A stretch of 64,000 nt of DNA from Octopus vulgaris (taxonomy: Eukaryota). Under the pieces are notes generated by a model, which saw only the letters and a program-made list of their open reading frames with translations, was not told the origin of the DNA and ran no database searches. Shown piece by piece: positions 6,949-59,898 of the stretch (within the stretch, counting starts at the first letter, position 1; every line of letters begins with the position of its first letter). Made by a program: the position numbers and the translations under genes. The stretch is taken from assembly GCA_951406725.2 (NCBI GenBank), contig OX597825.1, forward strand, positions 82,956,001 to 83,020,000. The letters run 5' to 3'.

Positions 6949-6978
<30 letters not shown>

Positions 6979-6979
<1 letters not shown>

Positions 6980-7708
6980 GACATCTTCTGTGTACAGCTA
7001 GCTTTTATATATACCCAGCTATGCCACTTAGAGTACGATTTGTCTAAGCATCGCTTTTAAGCACTATCGTTGTATAGGTCCTATATAAATATGTATATAC
7101 ATATGTATGTACATATACATATACATATAAATACATATAAATACATATGTGTATATGTATATACGTATATATATATGTATGTGAATATATACAAACATTT
7201 ACATTTACATATATATGTATACACATACATATATATATACAAATATATATATATATATTTATATATATATATATATGCATATATATATATATATATATAT
7301 ACATGAATATGCATTTGCGATATATTTTGGGATGTATTCATAGACGAAACACTTATATTATATATGGACAATCTTCATGCATGTAAGTATGTATATATAT
7401 ATATATATATATATGCATATATATATATATATGCATATATATATATATATATATTTGTATATATATATGTATGTGTATACATATATATGTAAATGTAAAT
7501 GTTTGTATATATTCACATACATATATATATACGTATATACATATACACATATGTATTTATATGTATATGTATATGTACATACATATGTATATACATATTT
7601 ATATAGGACCTATACAACGATAGTGCTTAAAAGCGATGCTTAGACAAATCGTACTCTAAGTGGCATAGCTGGGTATATATAAAAGCTAGCTGTACACAGA
7701 AGATGTCA
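6979..7708. repeat. Large inverted duplication (~310-bp arms, ~80-bp spacer)
   Basis: Unique sequence TGACATCTTCTG...GTATAGGTCC plus complex AT microsatellite at 6979-~7300 is the reverse complement of ~7390-7708. Confidence 0.92.
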
Positions 7709-8145
7709 ATATAATGAAATCAGAATGCTAAATGTCTCGATCGTTTAACGTGTTAACATAAAAGGAATTTAAATACCTCCTGTATTTTATACAAGTTTTG
7801 TGTTTCTTTGTTTGTAATTGTTAATCTCGGTGTATTTTAAACATTCTGAGACGAGGCCGCCTTCCTGATTTTATCGTAAGCTCTCGCATTTGTTTCTTGT
7901 AATCTTCTTACAACCATTAAAGATGGCGCTGCTATGCTAAACGTGTAATAATCGATTCAAAAAAAGGCGTCCTGTCTGGTCGTTCAACCCGCTACGTGTC
8001 TACGAGTAGCTGCCTAATCGTTTTTCACAGAACAACACTGAAGTATTTTTGTCATTTTTGTTCTTTCGTTTTGAAGACACCTTGTATAACAGTGTCATAG
8101 ATACACTGTCTCACCATTAATAATAATAATAATAAAATAATAATG

Positions 8146-8257
<112 letters not shown>

Positions 8258-8672
8258 GGCAGATATAGTTGTCAGAGATCATGAAGAAAAAAAGTCCATT
8301 CTAACTGATGTATCAATACCAGCAGATGACAACGTGTCTCTAAAAGAAATGGAGAAACTTTCAAAATACAAACACCTGGAAATAGAGGTAACCAGAATGT
8401 GGAATCTAAAAACAGAAACAATCACTATCATAGCAAGCGCATTAGGCATGATAAAAAAATATTCAGAGAAATACATAACAAAAACACCAGGACTTACAAA
8501 CACATATAACATACAGAAAATTGCACTACAGGGCACTGCACACATCCTACGCAAAACACTTTCAATACAGTTACCATCAGAGAATCACAACAAATCACAA
8601 CACATACCCAAGGCACACAGAGCTGCGCTCGGTAGTGAAGTGAAAGCATGCTATAAAAATAAAGCTACTGAA
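8258..8672 (+). mobile_element. 3' end of an R4/Dong-like non-LTR retrotransposon (restriction-like endonuclease domain)
   Basis: DIVVRDHEEKKSILTDVSIP..KEMEKLSKY..LEIE..W..ALG..QKIALQGTAHILRK, typical of the RLE domain. Embedded in (AAT)n on both sides. Confidence 0.85.
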
Positions 8673-23428: not shown

Positions 23429-23511
<83 letters not shown>

Positions 23512-23602
23512 ATATTATTAGAGACAAAACCACTATTTTGCAAAACAAACAAGGAAAGACTTAATCAATACATAAAATTTTAATAAAAAGTCAAAAAAAC
23601 CG

Positions 23603-23645
23603 CCACTACAATTGTTTCTTGTCTTGATCAACAATCTTCAGGTGG
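23603..23645 (-). ncRNA. Minimal type-I hammerhead ribozyme (family H1, inverted copy)
   Basis: Reverse complement of 23684-23726 with one change in stem II (C to U, giving a G-U pair). Confidence 0.85.
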
Positions 23646-23683
23646 ACTTCCAATAAGTCAGTTTCAACTGACTTATTGGAAGT

Positions 23684-23726
23684 CCACCTGAAGATTGTCG
23701 ATCAAGACAAGAAACAATTGTAGTGG
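23684..23726 (+). ncRNA. Minimal type-I hammerhead ribozyme (family H1)
   Basis: CCAC-CTGAAGA-TTGTC(GATCAA)GACAA-GAAA-CAATTG-TA-GTGG: stem I CCAC/GTGG, intact core CUGANGA and GAAA, 5-bp stem II, palindromic stem III, GUA cleavage triplet. Confidence 0.88.
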
Positions 23727-23965
23727 CGGTTTTTTTGACTTTTTATTAAAATTTTATGTATTGATTAAGTCTTTCCTTGTTTGTTTTGCAAAATAGTGGT
23801 TTTGTCTCTAATAATATTATATAATATTTTACTATAAAATTGGATTTAATCCTAAATCTGATTTTTTCCCTGTAAATTTGGATTTATTCCCTAATATTTA
23901 TTATATATATATATATATATATGTGCCTGCGTGTGTGAGTGTGTGTGTGTGTATATATAAATATG

Positions 23966-24022
<57 letters not shown>

Positions 24023-24872
24023 GTATATATATATATGTGTGTGTGTATATCTATCTATCTATCTATTTTTCTATATATGTATATATGTATATATATATAT
24101 ATGCACATATGTATATGTGTGTATCTATGTGTATCAGTATAAAGTGAGGGAAAATGGCTAGAAGTGTGCTGGAATAACAAAAGAGGTTCCCTCCATCAAT
24201 TCAGGAAAGTAAGCAACAGCACAAAAACGATACCAAAAAGAACGACAAAAATATTCTTTGATATATTTGAAAAGGCCGATTTTCTTCAAATCAGATAAAT
24301 CGATGTAGCTAGAAGAGATTAAGAAAGCCAGTTCATAAATTTTAAAAAGTTGTGTATCATGAAAAGGTTAACTGATTTTACCGTTATTATATCTCATTAT
24401 CTAATCAATAAAACGCGAAGAGTCTGCAGAGCCATGTAACACGACGGCAAAGCGCGTGGCTTCAATTCGTCCGCTTCTATGGTTTGAGTTCGCATTCCAC
24501 CGAGGACATCTTTGCCTTTCATGCTTTCGGGGTCGATAAAATATGGTGCCATTTGAGCACGAGGCCCTTCTTCCCAAGGTGTCAGACCTTCTCTACTATT
24601 GAAAGAATGTTTAAAGAGAAAAAAAATAATAATCGGAAATCGGAAGTGTCTTCACAGTTTCTTTTTTTAAACCCGTTAAAAGAAATGATAACCGCCTAGA
24701 AGGTACGATTTTAACATTATTGATATGCTTTTATGAGATTTGTAGAACATTTAGTGTAAGCGCTCTGACGAAACGGATTTGCCGCGGGGTCAGTGTTTTG
24801 GGTAGACTGTCTCGTGTGTCATATTCTTATTTTTACATTTGACGGATATTTCTCCTCATCTTGTTTGTTGTT

Positions 24873-24918
24873 AACACAACGTTTCGGCTGATATACACTC
24901 CAGCCTTCATCAGGTGTC
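24873..24918 (-). ncRNA. Minimal type-I hammerhead ribozyme (family H2)
   Basis: Minus strand reads GACAC-CTGATGA-A-GGCTG(GAGTGTATAT)CAGCC-GAAA-CG-TT-GTGTT: core intact, palindromic A-CG-U stem III, GUU triplet. Confidence 0.85.
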
Positions 24919-25059
24919 TTGGGGAAATTTCGAACCTGGGCTACTAACCCCAAGATTCTGAATTCGATTCCAGGCAGTGACCTGAATAATAATAATGATA
25001 ATAAAAATAACATCGAAAAATACCTTAGGAATGAGTACCCAGGTTCGAAAATTCCTCAA

Positions 25060-25105
25060 GATACCTGATAAAGGCTGGAGGGTATATCAGCCGAAACGTT
25101 GTGTT
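25060..25105 (+). ncRNA. Hammerhead ribozyme motif (family H2), core-mutated
   Basis: GATAC-CTGATAA-A-GGCTG...CAGCC-GAAA-CG-TT-GTGTT. CUGAUGA has become CUGAUAA (G8 to A), so it is predicted to be inactive. Confidence 0.75.
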
Positions 25106-26147
25106 AACAACAAACAAGATGAGGACAAATATCCGTCATATGTAAATCCGTCATATGACAAATATCCGTCATATGTAAATAATGTAACTAATGTTCTTAT
25201 TCCCACTTTCAGAAATTCCGAGTACATGAAAAAGTATTGATCGAATGAGTAATCTGTTAGGTGATGCTCTTGCCGTTTCAGCCTTGCTTCGGTGCGATCT
25301 AGCAGTAATGATTACGACCATCAAAATCCGAGACGTTGAAGTCGGAAATGAAGGCATATACGTTGTAATACACTCTATTTTGTAAGCTCAGAAGTGGAAC
25401 GCCGTAGGTCTATACATCCTAATTCCATATCCATTTCTGCTCAAAACGCATTGGACAGATTAGGACGTTTGACAAACCACCTGCCCCAAAACACCATGCA
25501 CTCGGAATGAGCCTGACATCTCGTGTTTGCGAAGCAGACATTTCAACCAGATAGCCATGGCTATTTTTCAACATTTCCTATATATTTCAAACGTACCACG
25601 TATTAGAAATTATACACAAATGTATTAAATATAATAATATACTCTGTTGAAGTATAACTGAAGTAGTATATTCGAATAAGCAACATGTCTAGAAGGAAAG
25701 GAGATTTAATGGGATTTTATCGGAAATTGGTTGGTCATTAAAAACCTATATTTATGGTCCGCTGCGTCTGTCGCTATTTAGATTAACATTTAATAGTTCG
25801 AAATGAAGTCATCTCACTGCGATTCTAATTATTTCTGCTATGATTGTCATAAAAGTGCAGGAAAGAATAGGACCAACCAAGTAGCCTTTCACTTTACAAC
25901 ACTCTGAGATTTTTACGAAAATTGTGCATCATTCGAAAAATTCTAAACAGTTTACGTATTTCAACGGGTCTATCTATCTATCTATCTAGCTAGCTAGCTA
26001 GCTGACTCTCTATGTGACTCACTCTCTGTTTTCACATTGTCCAGATTGTCCACAAATCTCAACTGATTAAACTTTGTAATTAGAATCATTACACCTCAGC
26101 CACTTGGCCTTGCATTAGTAAAGCCGTTTGTACACATATTGGACTAT

Positions 26148-30241: not shown

Positions 30242-30286
30242 CGCACGGACCCGAGTTTCTGGGTATTTACCCGTCGTCAGCGCACG
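30242..30286 (-). ncRNA. Minimal type-I hammerhead ribozyme (family H3)
   Basis: Minus strand reads CGTGCG-CTGACGA-C-GGG(TAAATA)CCC-A-GAAA-CTCGGG-TC-CGTGCG: 6-bp stem I with two G-U pairs, intact core, GUC triplet. Confidence 0.8.
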
Positions 30287-32885: not shown

Positions 32886-33030
32886 CTAAAGATGGGGAAA
32901 GTCCAGTTTATAGGATTTTTCATAATTGGTGTGCTTAAACCGAGCTTCCCCATTGTTTATATATATAGCTCTACATCTTAGAGTGTCTGTCTTCTTTCAG
33001 ATTTACCCTGTTTTCAAACTATATATATAC

Positions 33031-33112
<82 letters not shown>

Positions 33113-33144
33113 TTTATTTTAGGCAGCAGAAAATTCAACAAAAT

Positions 33145-33182
33145 CTGTTACTCTGAGTTTCTTGTTGCCGTTCATCAGACAG
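33145..33182 (-). ncRNA. Minimal type-I hammerhead ribozyme (family H5, inverted copy)
   Basis: Reverse complement of 33378-33415 with one stem II substitution. Confidence 0.72.
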
Positions 33183-33377
33183 TTTTTGCTAGCATTTAGA
33201 ATATTTTATGGAATCTTGATAATTGATGTTAAAGAAGTCTGTACCCGTATTCTATATCGTACAATAATATTGTATATACAGTAATATCAACAAAGAGGAT
33301 ATTGGTGTTCAAATGTCTGTCGACATGACAAGCAAATCGACATGACAAGCAAATCAACAGTTTTTTGCTAGCAAAAA

Positions 33378-33415
33378 CTGTCTGATGAACGGCAACGAGA
33401 AACTCAGAGTAACAG
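33378..33415 (+). ncRNA. Minimal type-I hammerhead ribozyme (family H5)
   Basis: CTGT-CTGATGA-A-CG(GCAA)CG-A-GAAA-CTC(A)GAG-TA-ACAG: stem I extends via AAAA/TTTT, short stem II capped by a GNRA loop, GUA triplet. Confidence 0.8.
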
Positions 33416-33517
33416 ATTTTGTTGAATTTTCTGCTGCTTAAAATAAAGCATATTACTCTACCACTGGTATTTGAGTACTCTTTTTTCCACCTTGTTTCAC
33501 GTTTATGTGTTTACTCC

Positions 33518-33558
<41 letters not shown>

Positions 33559-35501: not shown

Positions 35502-36940
35502 GCGCATGACAGACAGGCACGTATGCATACACATGTTTAATGCAACCATTTATTGAGACCCGAGAATGTCGTAAATCGCCATGGTTATCTTTTCAATTTA
35601 TACTTTCAGCATTCTCGACATTATCATCATTCTCATCACACCAAATGCATATATTTTGCCGATCTGATAGACATGCATTCATTAGCAATCCATGATGCAG
35701 TTTGTCTTGTTGAGCAAAAGAAAAGCATTCTCTGTTAGTCTCAGAGCTTCGCCTTCATATTTACAAACGTACATACATACATACATACATATATACATAC
35801 CCATATAAATATATATATATATATATATGTGTATGTATGTATGTATGTATGTATGTATGTATGTATATGTAAAAAATGCAAACTGGGACAAGAACGCAAA
35901 ACATTTAGAAGACGATACAAAAAGCCTTCAATCTTCAGTCAAGAACCGGAACATCATCGCAATTTCGGCTATATATATATATATTTATATGTATGTATGT
36001 ATGTATGTAAGTGTATATGCATGTATGTAATACACATATGTGTGTGTGTGTATATATGTGCGTATATATATATATATATACATATATATGCGTCTGTGTG
36101 TATGTGTCTGTGTGAGTAATTTTTAAGTGGACACGTTGACATTTTGCTAAGATAGTGCAGAAACGTGATATAGAGATACAGAAAGAATTGTCGTATAAAT
36201 GACAGAAAGAAAGAAAGAGAGGCAGAGAGAGGAAGAAACGGAGAGAGAATGAAAGAAAGTGAAAAGGGAGAAGTGGTAGAAATGTGTTGAATAACATTTA
36301 GAATATTTTATGGAATCTTGATAATTGATGTTAAAGAAGTCTGTACCCGTATTCTATATCGTACAATAATATTGTATATACAGTAATATCAACAAAGAGG
36401 ATATTGGTGTTCAAATGTCTGTCGACATGACAAGCAAATCAACATGTCTAATGTCTAACATATTCTTATATGGAACTGTCATAATATTATCGCATCAAAT
36501 AGCAGTGTTGTTGTTGTCTTTCCTTGCCATTTCTTTAATCTTTATTCATGTTTGCTTTATTCGTTTCAATAGATCTATGTTTAATGTATGAGAAGTAAAT
36601 ACAAATTTTGTCACGGACTGCCAGCCTATAATGATTTACCTGCAATTAACTTCGTTTTATCCTGAGATGATAAAACGTGAAAAAAAAAAGAAAAAAAAAC
36701 AAACATGACAAAACGTTTTAAAAACGTTCAGTTGCGTTGCACTTAAGAACTCTTCATTACGTTTAGCAACCACAAGACTTTGTAGAATAATCATGAAGTG
36801 GATTTATTTGTTATTGATGTTGGTAAACCTCAGATAAGCTCCAGATCAACCTACTTAACATCAAAAATTCACAGAATATCGTCTTATCGTAATTTTCCAG
36901 AGTCCTACATATTAAGGACTATATTGTCAAGTTTCAAGTC

Positions 36941-40217: not shown

Positions 40218-40772
40218 GAGTGAGCGAGCAGAGCATGCCATCAAAGTGACACTGGGGTAAAATATACGAAGCCCAGTATACCCATCATGACTACCCGTCT
40301 GATAAGGGTACACCAGGCACATGCATCACAACCATATGTGCGCGACATGGTGATCTCTTATCAAGATAAACAGCACATGACCTTGCAGGTGGAGCCCAGT
40401 TAGAATTTTCTTCAGATCGAGTAACCCATCCCGCTCAAACGGTCCCTGAATAAGGGTTGTTTAAGGATGTTGAAAGAACCACCCATGTTTCCAGAGGTGA
40501 ATTATTCAAACCCCAAAGAATCCCTCTCAACACATGGCTATGATGCTCCCCCACTACTTCTGCTCGTGATCAGAGATGCACATATCGTCAGTCACTAAGG
40601 GACATGCTCAACTGGTTAAGGTCAAACAACTGACAAGCAAATCTGTGGTATTGAGCAGAATATTTGCTGTAGCCCATCTTTTATACCAAGACAAAACAAT
40701 GTACATGATAACACTTCCAATCAGTTAAGATCAGAAGCCATGAGAGCCACTGCCTGGTACTGCATCAGGGCA
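40218..40772 (-). mobile_element. ~555-bp non-coding element embedded in (AAT)n (family D)
   Basis: Reverse complement is highly similar to 58872-59420 over its full length. Both copies have (AAT)n on both sides. Confidence 0.9.
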
Positions 40773-41158: not shown

Positions 41159-41811
41159 CGTCGTCGTCGTCGTCGTTGTTGTTATTGCTATTGCTGCTGT
41201 TATTAAGAGCAGGAAACCTGTAGGAATTGGTAGATACAAAAATTAATGGAAAAAATGCAAAGAGATGCCTCAGGTGGATGAGGAGACGTGTTGAGGACTG
41301 AAATTCGAGGACGATTTCATCCTCCTTAATTTGAGACAGTTGAAACGGTAATTTTCTTCAACAGAAAACCAATCATAATCCCCGCAGCAGTGCTATTCCT
41401 TAAAAACCTACTGTAATTTTCTCTTTCGTAGCTCTGATACGCAGCAATCAATTTTAGATTGCATTTTTATAATATCGCTTAACACTTCCCCAATCATGAT
41501 TCCAAAATGTTTGCCAAAACTCTTGAAGATTTACATAGTTATTATTGACAAATTAAGAGCATTTTTCTTTTTTTTTTCTTTTCTTTTTCTTTCAGCGAAT
41601 GAAATAGTTTTGAACAGTATTGGAGCTACATTAAGTTGCAGTTTGTTGGAGGAGGGTGACATACAGGTAATACTGTTTCCGGTTTCGTTTCAATCATTAA
41701 TAGGTGCAATGAATGGCGTGCAATATGAAGAAGCGTCAACATAAAATAACTTAAAGTATTTATTGAATCCACAACAATATTGCAGCAAATGTGTAATGGA
41801 ATATAAAAGTA

Positions 41812-42183
41812 CAGGGTAATTCAAAAGTCACCATACATAGGAAAAAATTAATTTTTTTATAAGAAACAGTTTACAAGATGCCCTAGATCCCCTGATCTGA
41901 CCCCTCTTGATTTCTATCTTTGTGGGGTATTTGAAAGGCATTAGTGTAACGCGGAAAGATAAAAGACATAAATCATTTGAAGGAACGCATCACCAACTCC
42001 TCTGCACACGTATCACCAGATGTGCTATTACGAGTTCACAAAGAGTGGGATAAACGTATTGCAATGTGTATTCAAAGCAACGGTTGCCATATAGAGCCTG
42101 TTAAATAAAAAAACTGTTCTTACGAACTGTTCCTTATAAAAAGATAAATTGTTCCTATGTATGGCAACTCTTTAATCACCCTA
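41812..42183 (+). mobile_element. Internally deleted Tc1/mariner-superfamily transposon
   Basis: ~60-bp TIRs (CAGGGT.ATT.AA.AGT..CCATACATAGGAA.AA), TA flanks. Frameshifted peptide PRSPDLTPLDFYL(W)GYLKG..KIKDINHLKERI..EWDKRIAMCIQSNGCHIE. Confidence 0.9.
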
Positions 42184-43034
42184 TATATTGCAATCATGGT
42201 TCTAAACATTATCGTTATATGAGATTCTCAAAGATTATAGGTGCAGGAATGGCGATGTGGTTAAGAACTGGTGCAGTCAAGGAAATTTAGTCTAGAAATT
42301 CGATTCACAATCACGTACTGCTGAAATATTCCTTAAAGGAATATATATATAAATTTTAACATATTCCTTTAACTTAACCTTCCTTTATTGATATCAATAA
42401 TTGCCATTTAATAAATAATTATAAATATATGTTAAGTTAGTATTTAAATATGTAAATATGGAATTACTTCTATATTTTCTGTCCCTCTATTGTGTAAAAG
42501 TTTTGCGATATACTGAAAGTATTCAGAAATATTCTTCTTGGTGTTCTTAAGATTGATTCTATAATGTATCTGGGTATAAACAAATAACATTGTTTTATAG
42601 TAGGTAAATGTTCTGCTATTATATGAAATCATTCTCCCTGTCCCATAAGCAGCGGTCTACAAAATTAGCAGCTAAAATCTTGTCAGGTATATTCTTACTG
42701 AACCAAATGACTTTGCTTAAAAGAAATCTTGATTTATGAATCTGCCACTTAAATTGTCTATCTATTTTGCCCTATCCATAAAAGGATATTACACTCTCTC
42801 GTCTCTTAGATTTGATAATCTAGTCTATAAATTAAAACTGACCCCAAACCCAATTAGTAAATCTAAATAACAAAAATAATCAGTGATAAGCAGTGTCTTT
42901 TTGAAAAAATCTCAGTTACAACCGTGATGTTGCTGGTAAAACATGATCTTTGTCTAACTCCTTATCCCCTTGGTGATTTTGGATAAAAAATTATACAAAT
43001 GAGTCCTTCGAATTTAATTAAATTCTATATTTTT

Positions 43035-56625: not shown

Positions 56626-56666
56626 ATTACATTTGACGAATATTTGTCCTCATCTTGTTTGTTGTT

Positions 56667-56712
56667 AACACAACGTTTCGGCTGATATACTCTCCAGCCT
56701 TCATCAGGTGTC
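56667..56712 (-). ncRNA. Minimal type-I hammerhead ribozyme (family H2)
   Basis: Minus strand reads GACAC-CTGATGA-A-GGCTG(GAGAGTATAT)CAGCC-GAAA-CG-TT-GTGTT, inside an H2 repeat at ~56628-56770. Confidence 0.85.
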
Positions 56713-56900
56713 GTTGGGAAATTTCGAACATAGGTTCTCATTCCTAAGGTGTTTTTTTTTTAAATATCATTACTATTATTAGTCGAAACGATCAAGAGAT
56801 GGACGCACTTCCGCCATGTAGACATCGCTCGACGACGCAGACGTCAGACATATTAGAAATAGTCACCGGATCTTCCTCGAATCACTATATCATCTTTCCT

Positions 56901-58871: not shown

Positions 58872-59420
58872 TGATGCAGTACTAGACAGTGGCTTTCATG
58901 GCTTCTGATCTTAACTGATTAGAAGTGTTATCATGTACATTGTTTTGTCTTGGTATAAAAGATGGGCTACAGCAAATATTCTGCTCAATACCACAGATTT
59001 GCTTGTCAGTTGTTTACCTTAACCAGTTGAGCATGTCCCTTAGTGGCTGACGATATGTGCATCTCTGATCACGAGCAGAAGTAGTGAGGGAGCATCATAG
59101 CCATGTGTTGAGGGGGATTCTTTGGGGTTTGAATAATTCACCACTGGAAACATGGGTGTTTTGTCCAACATCCTTAAACAAACCTTATTCAGGGACCTTT
59201 TCAGCGGGATGTGCTACTCAACCTGAAGAAAATTCTAACTGGGCCCCACCTGCAAGGTCATGTGCTGCTTATCTTGATATGAGATCACCATGTCGCGCAC
59301 ATATGGTTGTGATGCATATGCCTAGTGTACCCTTATCAGACGGGTAGTCATGATGGGTATACGGGGCTTCGTATATTTTACCCCAGTGTCACTTTGATGG
59401 CATGCACTGCTCTCTCACTC
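58872..59420 (+). mobile_element. Family D element
   Basis: Full-length match to 40218-40772 (inverted), with (AAT)n flanks. Confidence 0.9.
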
Positions 59421-59496
<76 letters not shown>

Positions 59497-59898
59497 GAAT
59501 AGGAAACCAGGCATAGTTTTAATTGAGAAAGAAAACAAACTATGCTGGATCATAGATATAGCATGCCCAGCTGACAACAAGATGTGCGATAAGGAAGAAA
59601 GAAAAGTCGAGAGATATGACAGGTTAGCTTGGGAAGTTAAGCAGTTGTGCTCGAAGAAAAAGGTAGCAGTTGTACAAATAATTGTCGGAGCCCTGGGATC
59701 AGTGAGCAAAAATCTCGAGAAGTACGTGGAACAAATAGGGGCTGCAATAAGGGTGGAGCACTTGCAGAAAACAGCACTGCTTGAAACCGCTCGAATACTC
59801 TGGAAGGTGCTGGAAAAATAAGAGGTGTTATCTTACTTCACTGGTAGTGAACAGCCGACACCGTAGTACCGCTCCAGCGTTAGAAGCTGCGCAAAGGC
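59497..59898 (+). mobile_element. 3' end of a second R4/Dong-like RLE retrotransposon
   Basis: NRKPGIVLIEKENKLCWIIDIACPADNKMCDKEERKVERYDRLAWEVKQL..IIVGALG..LQKTALLETARIL, with (AAT)n on both sides. Confidence 0.88.

Follow-up and report, generated by a model that had tools for sequence, protein, structure and literature searches.

Introduction

Insertions of EN+ Penelope-like elements (PLEs) are described with an inverted 5'-truncated copy, a one-sided tail, a microsatellite as target and a hammerhead in the pLTR (PMC8557442, PMC3846280, PMC4209133). Two reverse-transcription start sites account for the tail in vitro (PMC11167929), while PMC8557442 treats the way in which PLEs build their inverted copies as unresolved. 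Active PLE insertions have a median length of 128 bp (PMC9977147), and animal retrozymes have been proposed as PLE derivatives (bioRxiv 10.64898/2026.07.22.740005). In the rotifer Adineta vaga, Pen1 spacers of 0.9-1.5 kb, an NRPS gene and non-coding sequence between solo pLTRs are reported, and host DNA between pLTRs has moved there (PMC3846280).

Perfect palindromes break centrally and are stabilised by loss of symmetry or by spacers of 35-52 bp; in the mouse system 93% of the centre revisions are deletions (PMC8701086). A human palindrome allele carries an asymmetric insertion of unknown origin (PMC4255720). Templated insertions that are primed by minimal pairing and are often iterative mark MMEJ, whereby insertions by polymerase theta are generally below 25 bp and flank-derived (PMC12426944).

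Here we describe H5, a palindromic repeat insertion that carries a patch of nearby host DNA at its centre. It lies in a 64-kb stretch of Octopus vulgaris DNA (the window), which is AT-rich animal DNA with dense microsatellites and zero Ns. H5 resembles EN+ PLE insertions by its head-to-head arrangement, palindromic junction, one-sided extension, (TA)n target and minimal type I hammerhead with palindromic helix III. It differs by having no linked ORF, by an extension of 66 nt instead of the 30-40 nt described and by a 167-nt patch of host DNA whose local donor is known. With the pLTR captures of Adineta vaga it shares unrelated host DNA between element ends. There, however, host DNA lies between direct pLTRs where the orientation is given, and the NRPS unit has moved (PMC3846280), whereas the H5 patch sits at an inverted junction and has a donor in cis, 3.1 kb away; the patch itself has not moved.

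Minimal microhomology, iterative segments, the lack of poly(A) and an intact donor are features that H5 has in common with templated insertions of MMEJ/polymerase theta and with class 2 templated sequence insertion polymorphisms (TSIPs; PMC12426944, PMC5110952). In contrast to the former, the patch exceeds the usual size and its donor is 3 kb off (PMC12426944); in contrast to the latter, for which PMC5110952 describes distant donors and no duplication, 16 bp are duplicated. Loss of symmetry at the centre of a perfect palindrome recalls centre-break revision (Cunningham et al. 2003, as summarised in PMC8701086), although the outcomes given there are mostly deletions and H5 shows an insertion plus a centre duplication. 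Nearby DNA copied into a retro-insertion junction is also described for L1, yet as induced, somatic events in human cells (PMC11702581), whereas H5 is of PLE type and was found in the assembled genome of an animal. Precedents are thus on record for patches with a local template, for revision of palindrome centres and for host DNA between pLTRs, and the H5 patch is a new example of these known processes. A literature search mostly confined to main texts outside subscription journals retrieved no local-donor patch at a PLE inverted junction.

Results and Discussion

A patch identical to DNA 3.1 kb away

The interval 33193-33359 (167 nt) contains a 17-mer twice, at 33322-33338 and 33339-33355. 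Minus one 17-mer it equals 36295-36444 at 150 of 150 positions, on the same strand and at an offset of 3,102 bp, just as an earlier note on this DNA had claimed. The identity extends 0 nt beyond either end (BLAST E about 1e-74). Four pairs of at least 40 bp and at least 97% identity are found in the microsatellite-masked window; patch and donor form the only one in direct orientation, the remaining three being inverted. The patch is present in the assembly and probably also in the animal. Its parts, together with the duplicated palindrome centre and the donor, are as follows.

33179..33194, forward strand: first occurrence of the duplicated 16-bp centre, across the axis between CT and AG; ACAGTTTTTGCTAGCA
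33193..33338, forward strand: patch segment 1, 146 nt equal to 36295-36440, with CA microhomology at its start
33322..33355, forward strand: 17-bp tandem duplication, read as a slip-back within the donor; TC microhomology, 7/8 nt alike in donor context
33337..33359, forward strand: patch segment 2, 23 nt equal to 36422-36444, with ACA microhomology at its end
33357..33373, forward strand: second occurrence of the duplicated centre, one T longer (T5 to T6); what precedes CTAG here stems from the fold-back and not from the family
36295..36444, forward strand: donor, non-coding and single-copy; contigs of three runs, two species in all, contain it without a break

All three switch points show microhomology, namely CA on the left (2 nt), TC at the 17-bp slip (2 nt) and ACA on the right (3 nt), the last being measured against the empty palindrome. 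At random window positions at least 2 nt occur in 17% and at least 3 nt in 6%. The joint chance of 2, 2 and 3 nt is ~0.002, a value that assumes a prior palindrome since the left CA qualifies as microhomology only if the palindrome pre-existed. CA and AACA had been named as junction microhomologies beforehand; CA stands, and AACA has to be shortened to ACA. Both outer junctions moreover allow pairing that tolerates a mismatch (TAGCA/TAACA on the left, ATCAACA/ATCAGACA on the right), which fits a primer running from left to right. By a rough, post hoc estimate a random local copy hits one of the three fold-back centres ~0.14% of the time.

The flank had further been described as duplicated at a GCTAGC centre. 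The duplication is found (16 bp with one added T), but GCTAGC is not the usual centre of the family: in most of the family pieces listed (loose ends before 33368), CCATT precedes CTAGC. Hence the symmetry axis belongs to this insertion. A purine-rich tract (36180-36280) lies directly upstream of the donor start, and any role in exposing the template would be speculation.

Arms and hammerhead motif of H5

H5 is laid out as (TA)n, a short inverted copy, a sense copy with extension and again (TA)n.

33020..33110, no strand: left (TA)n tract of the probable target site
33112..33194, reverse strand: left arm, inverted 5'-truncated repeat end without extension; substitutions at 33122 and 33163 relative to the right arm
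33139..33187, reverse strand: decayed minimal hammerhead of the left arm; mirrors 33373-33421 and fails a strict scan
33368..33453, forward strand: right arm, sense copy of the repeat end
33373..33421, forward strand: minimal type I hammerhead with core CTGATGA at 33382, GUA at 33409-33411 and palindromic helix III
33454..33519, forward strand: tail-like extension of 66 nt that the left copy lacks; belongs to the same high-copy repeat
33520..33552, no strand: right (TA)n tract of the probable target site

The arms (33112-33194 versus 33366-33448) differ at 2 of 83 positions, or at 3 of 88 when the TA edge is included, and their fold-back has a z of -19. Both point outward and start 10-14 nt 5' of the hammerhead core; in other copies the family reaches further 5'. 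Helix II of the right-arm hammerhead is GNRA-capped with an A.A mismatch at its base, which a family variant (T at 33398) restores to a pair. In the left arm, one of the two substitutions disrupts helix II.

A scan of the window with the exact core gave four hammerhead motifs, one of them in the right arm, against 0.05 expected from 20 Markov simulations; three of the four fall in head-to-head palindromes. Rfam reported no hammerhead at the locus among 12 matches with E up to 10. Window-wide, the 150 best of 439 Rfam matches are nearly all miRNA models on microsatellites, none of them at gathering score. The minimum-energy fold differs from the hammerhead fold as well, so that the motif is assigned by its core, helices I-III and the variant restoring helix II. 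A pattern scan of metagenomes gave a single match, 23 nt alike in a bacterial-looking contig, which we took as chance.

An abundant family with Penelope-like layout

On 33112-33519, public contigs of three runs yield 5208, 2393 and 2938 pieces. Most of their depth falls on the arms and on 33454-33519, indicating that the element extends 66 nt past the right arm. Family pieces end in (TA)n at 33453, the end point of the left arm, in 27, 8 and 33 contigs of the three runs. From a raw run (3% of its reads) eight reads were obtained, none of which falls on the arms or the patch. All eight lie on 33456-33519; they are uninformative for the filled allele and lend no confirmation to the family copy number seen in contigs. 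In five of them 33456-33519 is preceded directly by a TA tract and three variants are shared, which marks a sub-form lacking the hammerhead part.

The inversion junctions vary among other family copies (15 of the 35 joints listed), and fillers of 1-18 nt separate the arms in 12 of the 24 rows listed. Three of the short fillers match the element over 6-9 nt only. A joint with AATGG in run X1 and one with CCATT in run X4 are reverse complements (33190-33192 to 33368-33370). They represent one short-loop fold-back junction of the family that is common to both species, at 2.4 and 11x single-copy depth, whereby this depth is not a reliable copy number; the shared junction could reflect re-copying or recurrence.

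Across 150 window frames (148 of the 170 listed plus two), Pfam gave three matches, all under the curated cut-off, and no reverse transcriptase plus GIY-YIG domain. As no ORF ties the family to PLEs, membership is assigned by layout, from which we infer that H5 is a PLE-type insertion. A MITE or fold-back DNA transposon was considered and rejected on account of the single-copy host DNA in the interior, the many inversion points and the 66 nt by which one arm is longer.

Patch and donor in other sequence data

The 150-mer lies mid-contig in one unbroken contig per run in all three runs (lengths 625, 906 and 884 nt at depths of 57.6, 19.9 and 23.2). These contigs match the patch up to 33344, as the donor form predicts. 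They deviate by one letter in organism A, at the duplication edge, and by four in organism B. Single unbroken contigs in two species mean that the 150-mer is single-copy host DNA, older than the species split and located outside H5. It is thus neither a high-copy repeat nor a normal part of H5, either of which would have spoken against a captured copy according to the earlier note. At both listed sites where the two organisms differ (33241 and 33249), the patch matches the donor of organism A. The capture itself appears to be recent and would postdate the split of the two sampled species.

At the duplicated right junction (33345-33349), zero contig pieces were found in three runs of two species, X1 having been read to about 80%. 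The depth in this bin is exactly 9/14 of the donor contig. Among 24 listed runs, of which those with small word shares were left out of the contig comparison, the highest share of sampled words is 0.68, below the non-carrier ceiling of 0.77. The uncovered junction and the low share of words together indicate that the filled allele is unseen in the other runs. Since other contigs hold the donor form only, the patch is either young and private or an assembly error. The empty-palindrome allele was likewise not seen in the contigs of the three runs.

An extra contig piece covers 33210-33227 and ends at 33227 in all three runs, at 0.70, 0.70 and 0.36 times single-copy depth. The unbroken donor contig makes a similar sequence from a different locus the probable source of this piece, a diverged arm-patch junction being possible too.

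Origin of the patch

The reading we lean to, though tentatively and with somewhat less than even confidence, is that a break in the centre of the palindrome was repaired by microhomology-primed synthesis. To judge from the layout, a PLE-type element would have inserted two 5'-truncated, hammerhead-bearing ends head to head in (TA)n. These would have met at CTAG and formed a spacer-less palindrome of ~170 bp, which may have extruded a hairpin or cruciform that was cut near its tip. If the opening was off-centre, both ends would retain sequence past the axis, and the bases kept beyond it would result in the 16-bp duplication. Microhomology of 2-3 bp would then have let one 3' end prime 3.1 kb away; after 146 nt of copying it would have fallen back by 17 nt and gained another 21 nt before pairing with the opposite end, the T run slipping by one base. 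For this last step the sequence is at hand and the mechanism is conjectural. Three microhomology switches, the 17-bp slip and the T-run slip point to microhomology-primed synthesis of low processivity, conceivably end joining of the polymerase theta kind or MMBIR/aborted strand invasion. With its 167-nt spacer the palindrome is expected to be more stable. The patch is most likely the product of a one-off repair event and would itself be passive.

Repair at the centre is favoured by the instability known for perfect palindromes (PMC8701086) and by the fact that both ends overshoot the same axis, and a state like its presumed precursor exists in the window in the form of a hammerhead palindrome with a 2-nt centre (23501-23827). 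The arms differ at two of 83 or three of 88 positions and patch and donor at none of 150 (Fisher p 0.13 or 0.05), which is a weak sign that the palindrome may be older than the patch. This age difference is not clearly significant, and reverse-transcription error could explain it. Further points against repair at the centre are the deletions that prevail in the mouse system and the norm for polymerase theta, from which 146 + 21 nt copied from 3.1 kb away depart in both size and distance. In addition, the 17-bp slip pairs better (7/8) from right to left, opposite to the direction of the outer junctions, and neither an empty allele nor a read across the filled junctions was seen.

Repair at the centre is only slightly favoured over capture during insertion, which we regard as rather unlikely but worth serious attention. 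It holds that the head-to-head junction is made anew in each PLE insertion, by a self-priming fold-back or by joining of two cDNA 3' ends: the strand would fold at CTAG, run 11 nt, jump 3 kb, copy 167 nt and return for the inverted arm. One continuous right-to-left strand would explain every part, in a direction that fits the 17-bp slip, and the varied inversion junctions and short fillers of other copies would follow too, although later repair at the centre equally predicts short fillers. Self-priming has been proposed for PLE junction palindromes (PMC3846280), and in L1 experiments three insertions with extra sequence templated near the site are reported (PMC11702581). On the other hand, the return must strike the axis exactly, and the arms have diverged whereas patch and donor have not, a weak argument.

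That the patch arose in assembly or library preparation, with a hairpin-induced gap filled with local sequence (through 3-kb mate pairs, local reassembly or an amplification chimera), seems improbable to us; it keeps this much weight since no read spans the junctions. Palindromes are difficult to sequence and assemble (PMC8557442, PMC8701086), and the complete identity of patch and donor, the uncovered bin at 33345-33349 with its depth ratio and the top word share below the ceiling all agree with an artefact. However, the window is free of Ns, and the three microhomology switches with the two slips resemble synthesis and not mis-joining. Moreover, young insertions are expected to be absent in other individuals, and the reads of the source individual may not be among the runs compared.

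Still less credible, in our view, is a scenario in which a PLE or LINE enzyme reverse-transcribed a nascent RNA from nearby into an existing palindrome by target priming; the 16 bp would then be a target-site duplication and the 17-bp repeat a sign of re-initiation. The 16 bp are inside the range of LINE target-site duplications (12-18 bp; PMC11702581), PLEs are reported to mobilise host sequence in trans (PMC3846280), and in vitro a PLE protein has cleaved a target that corresponds to the ORF-pLTR junction of its own element, pLTR self-nicking being proposed (PMC11167929). Yet the patch has no poly(A) and no AATAAA on either strand, no TTTT/A is found at either duplication edge, and Pfam on the 150 frames detected no coding exon to indicate transcription. 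A donor in cis at 3 kb is also reached more simply via DNA. A duplication of at least 5 bp, as class 1 TSIPs have, is present at 16 bp with a one-base difference; it is the only class 1 mark found (PMC5110952), and the low weight of an RNA template follows from this. The earlier suggestion of local template switching is supported for DNA, with a single-copy donor and above-chance microhomology, and finds no support for nascent RNA, as poly(A), AATAAA and Pfam matches over the cut-off are all missing. Of the two routes named in the earlier note, switching during insertion and repair of a break at the hairpin tip, the second is slightly the likelier.

It had been suggested, too, that these elements might transduce host sequence by this route. 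The patch occurs once in the window, its right junction is not seen in three other runs, and it lies 5' of both fragments; there is no sign that it has spread. The captured 150-mer was seen with the element at no further locus, neither in the window nor in the contigs of 3/3 runs. In principle, transduction by the element is possible, as host DNA between pLTRs has moved in the rotifer and the fold-back junction shared by both species could have been re-copied. PLE machinery might jump regularly from its fold-back intermediate to neighbouring chromosomal DNA or nascent RNA and back, making the junctions regular sites of local capture. We consider this a long shot; if it were true, arm-patch-arm units could be re-copied, and the fillers across thousands of copies would record how the inverted structure of PLEs forms, a process listed as undefined in the literature.

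As a single event, the patch is another locally templated insertion with unusually legible junctions. The lead is the very abundant hammerhead-bearing family with its variable, filler-containing inversion junctions. Donors and ages of the fillers genome-wide would separate capture at insertion from later repair and would test palindromes as hotspots of local duplication.

Other fold-backs and repeats in the window

The H5 arms match each other only, and other H5 pairs are not found in the window. Locally derived sequence had been anticipated in the spacers of other fold-backs. The spacers 7296-7395, 24935-25045 and 23640-23690 have no exact donor of at least 13 nt nearby if microsatellite, a single 14-nt family match and the palindrome as such are disregarded. 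Local capture is therefore seen in one of three hammerhead pairs and one of four fold-backs.

The hammerhead palindrome at 23501-23827 belongs to another family (161/162 alike) and is built like H5 without the patch; a one-sided extension of ~75 nt reaches to about 23900 and is followed by (TA)n. An older head-to-head hammerhead pair occupies 24832-25146 (106/113 alike, 88-nt centre). Short tandem repeats are found at the right end of this pair (24832-25190), and a solo copy lies at 56628-56756. The motif at 30242-30286 (reverse strand) is a solo hammerhead with well-paired helices and without partner in the window.

A young inverted duplication of apparently ordinary DNA spans 6973-7713, with arms of ~330 bp (320 of 321 aligned letters identical) that differ mainly in microsatellite length, an 84-nt spacer and no hammerhead core. 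It is either a local fold-back event or an assembly chimera. The related frames 8136-8672 and 59498-59818 look like a LINE C-terminal endonuclease, which is our assumption; Pfam gave no match over the cut-off for either. A small element with 62-bp terminal inverted repeats (82% alike) is located at 41810-42185, its interior resembling what we take to be a deleted Tc1/mariner transposon. Finally, 40218-40766 and 58873-59420 form a 549-bp inverted repeat pair, 95% alike and flanked by (AAT)n tracts.
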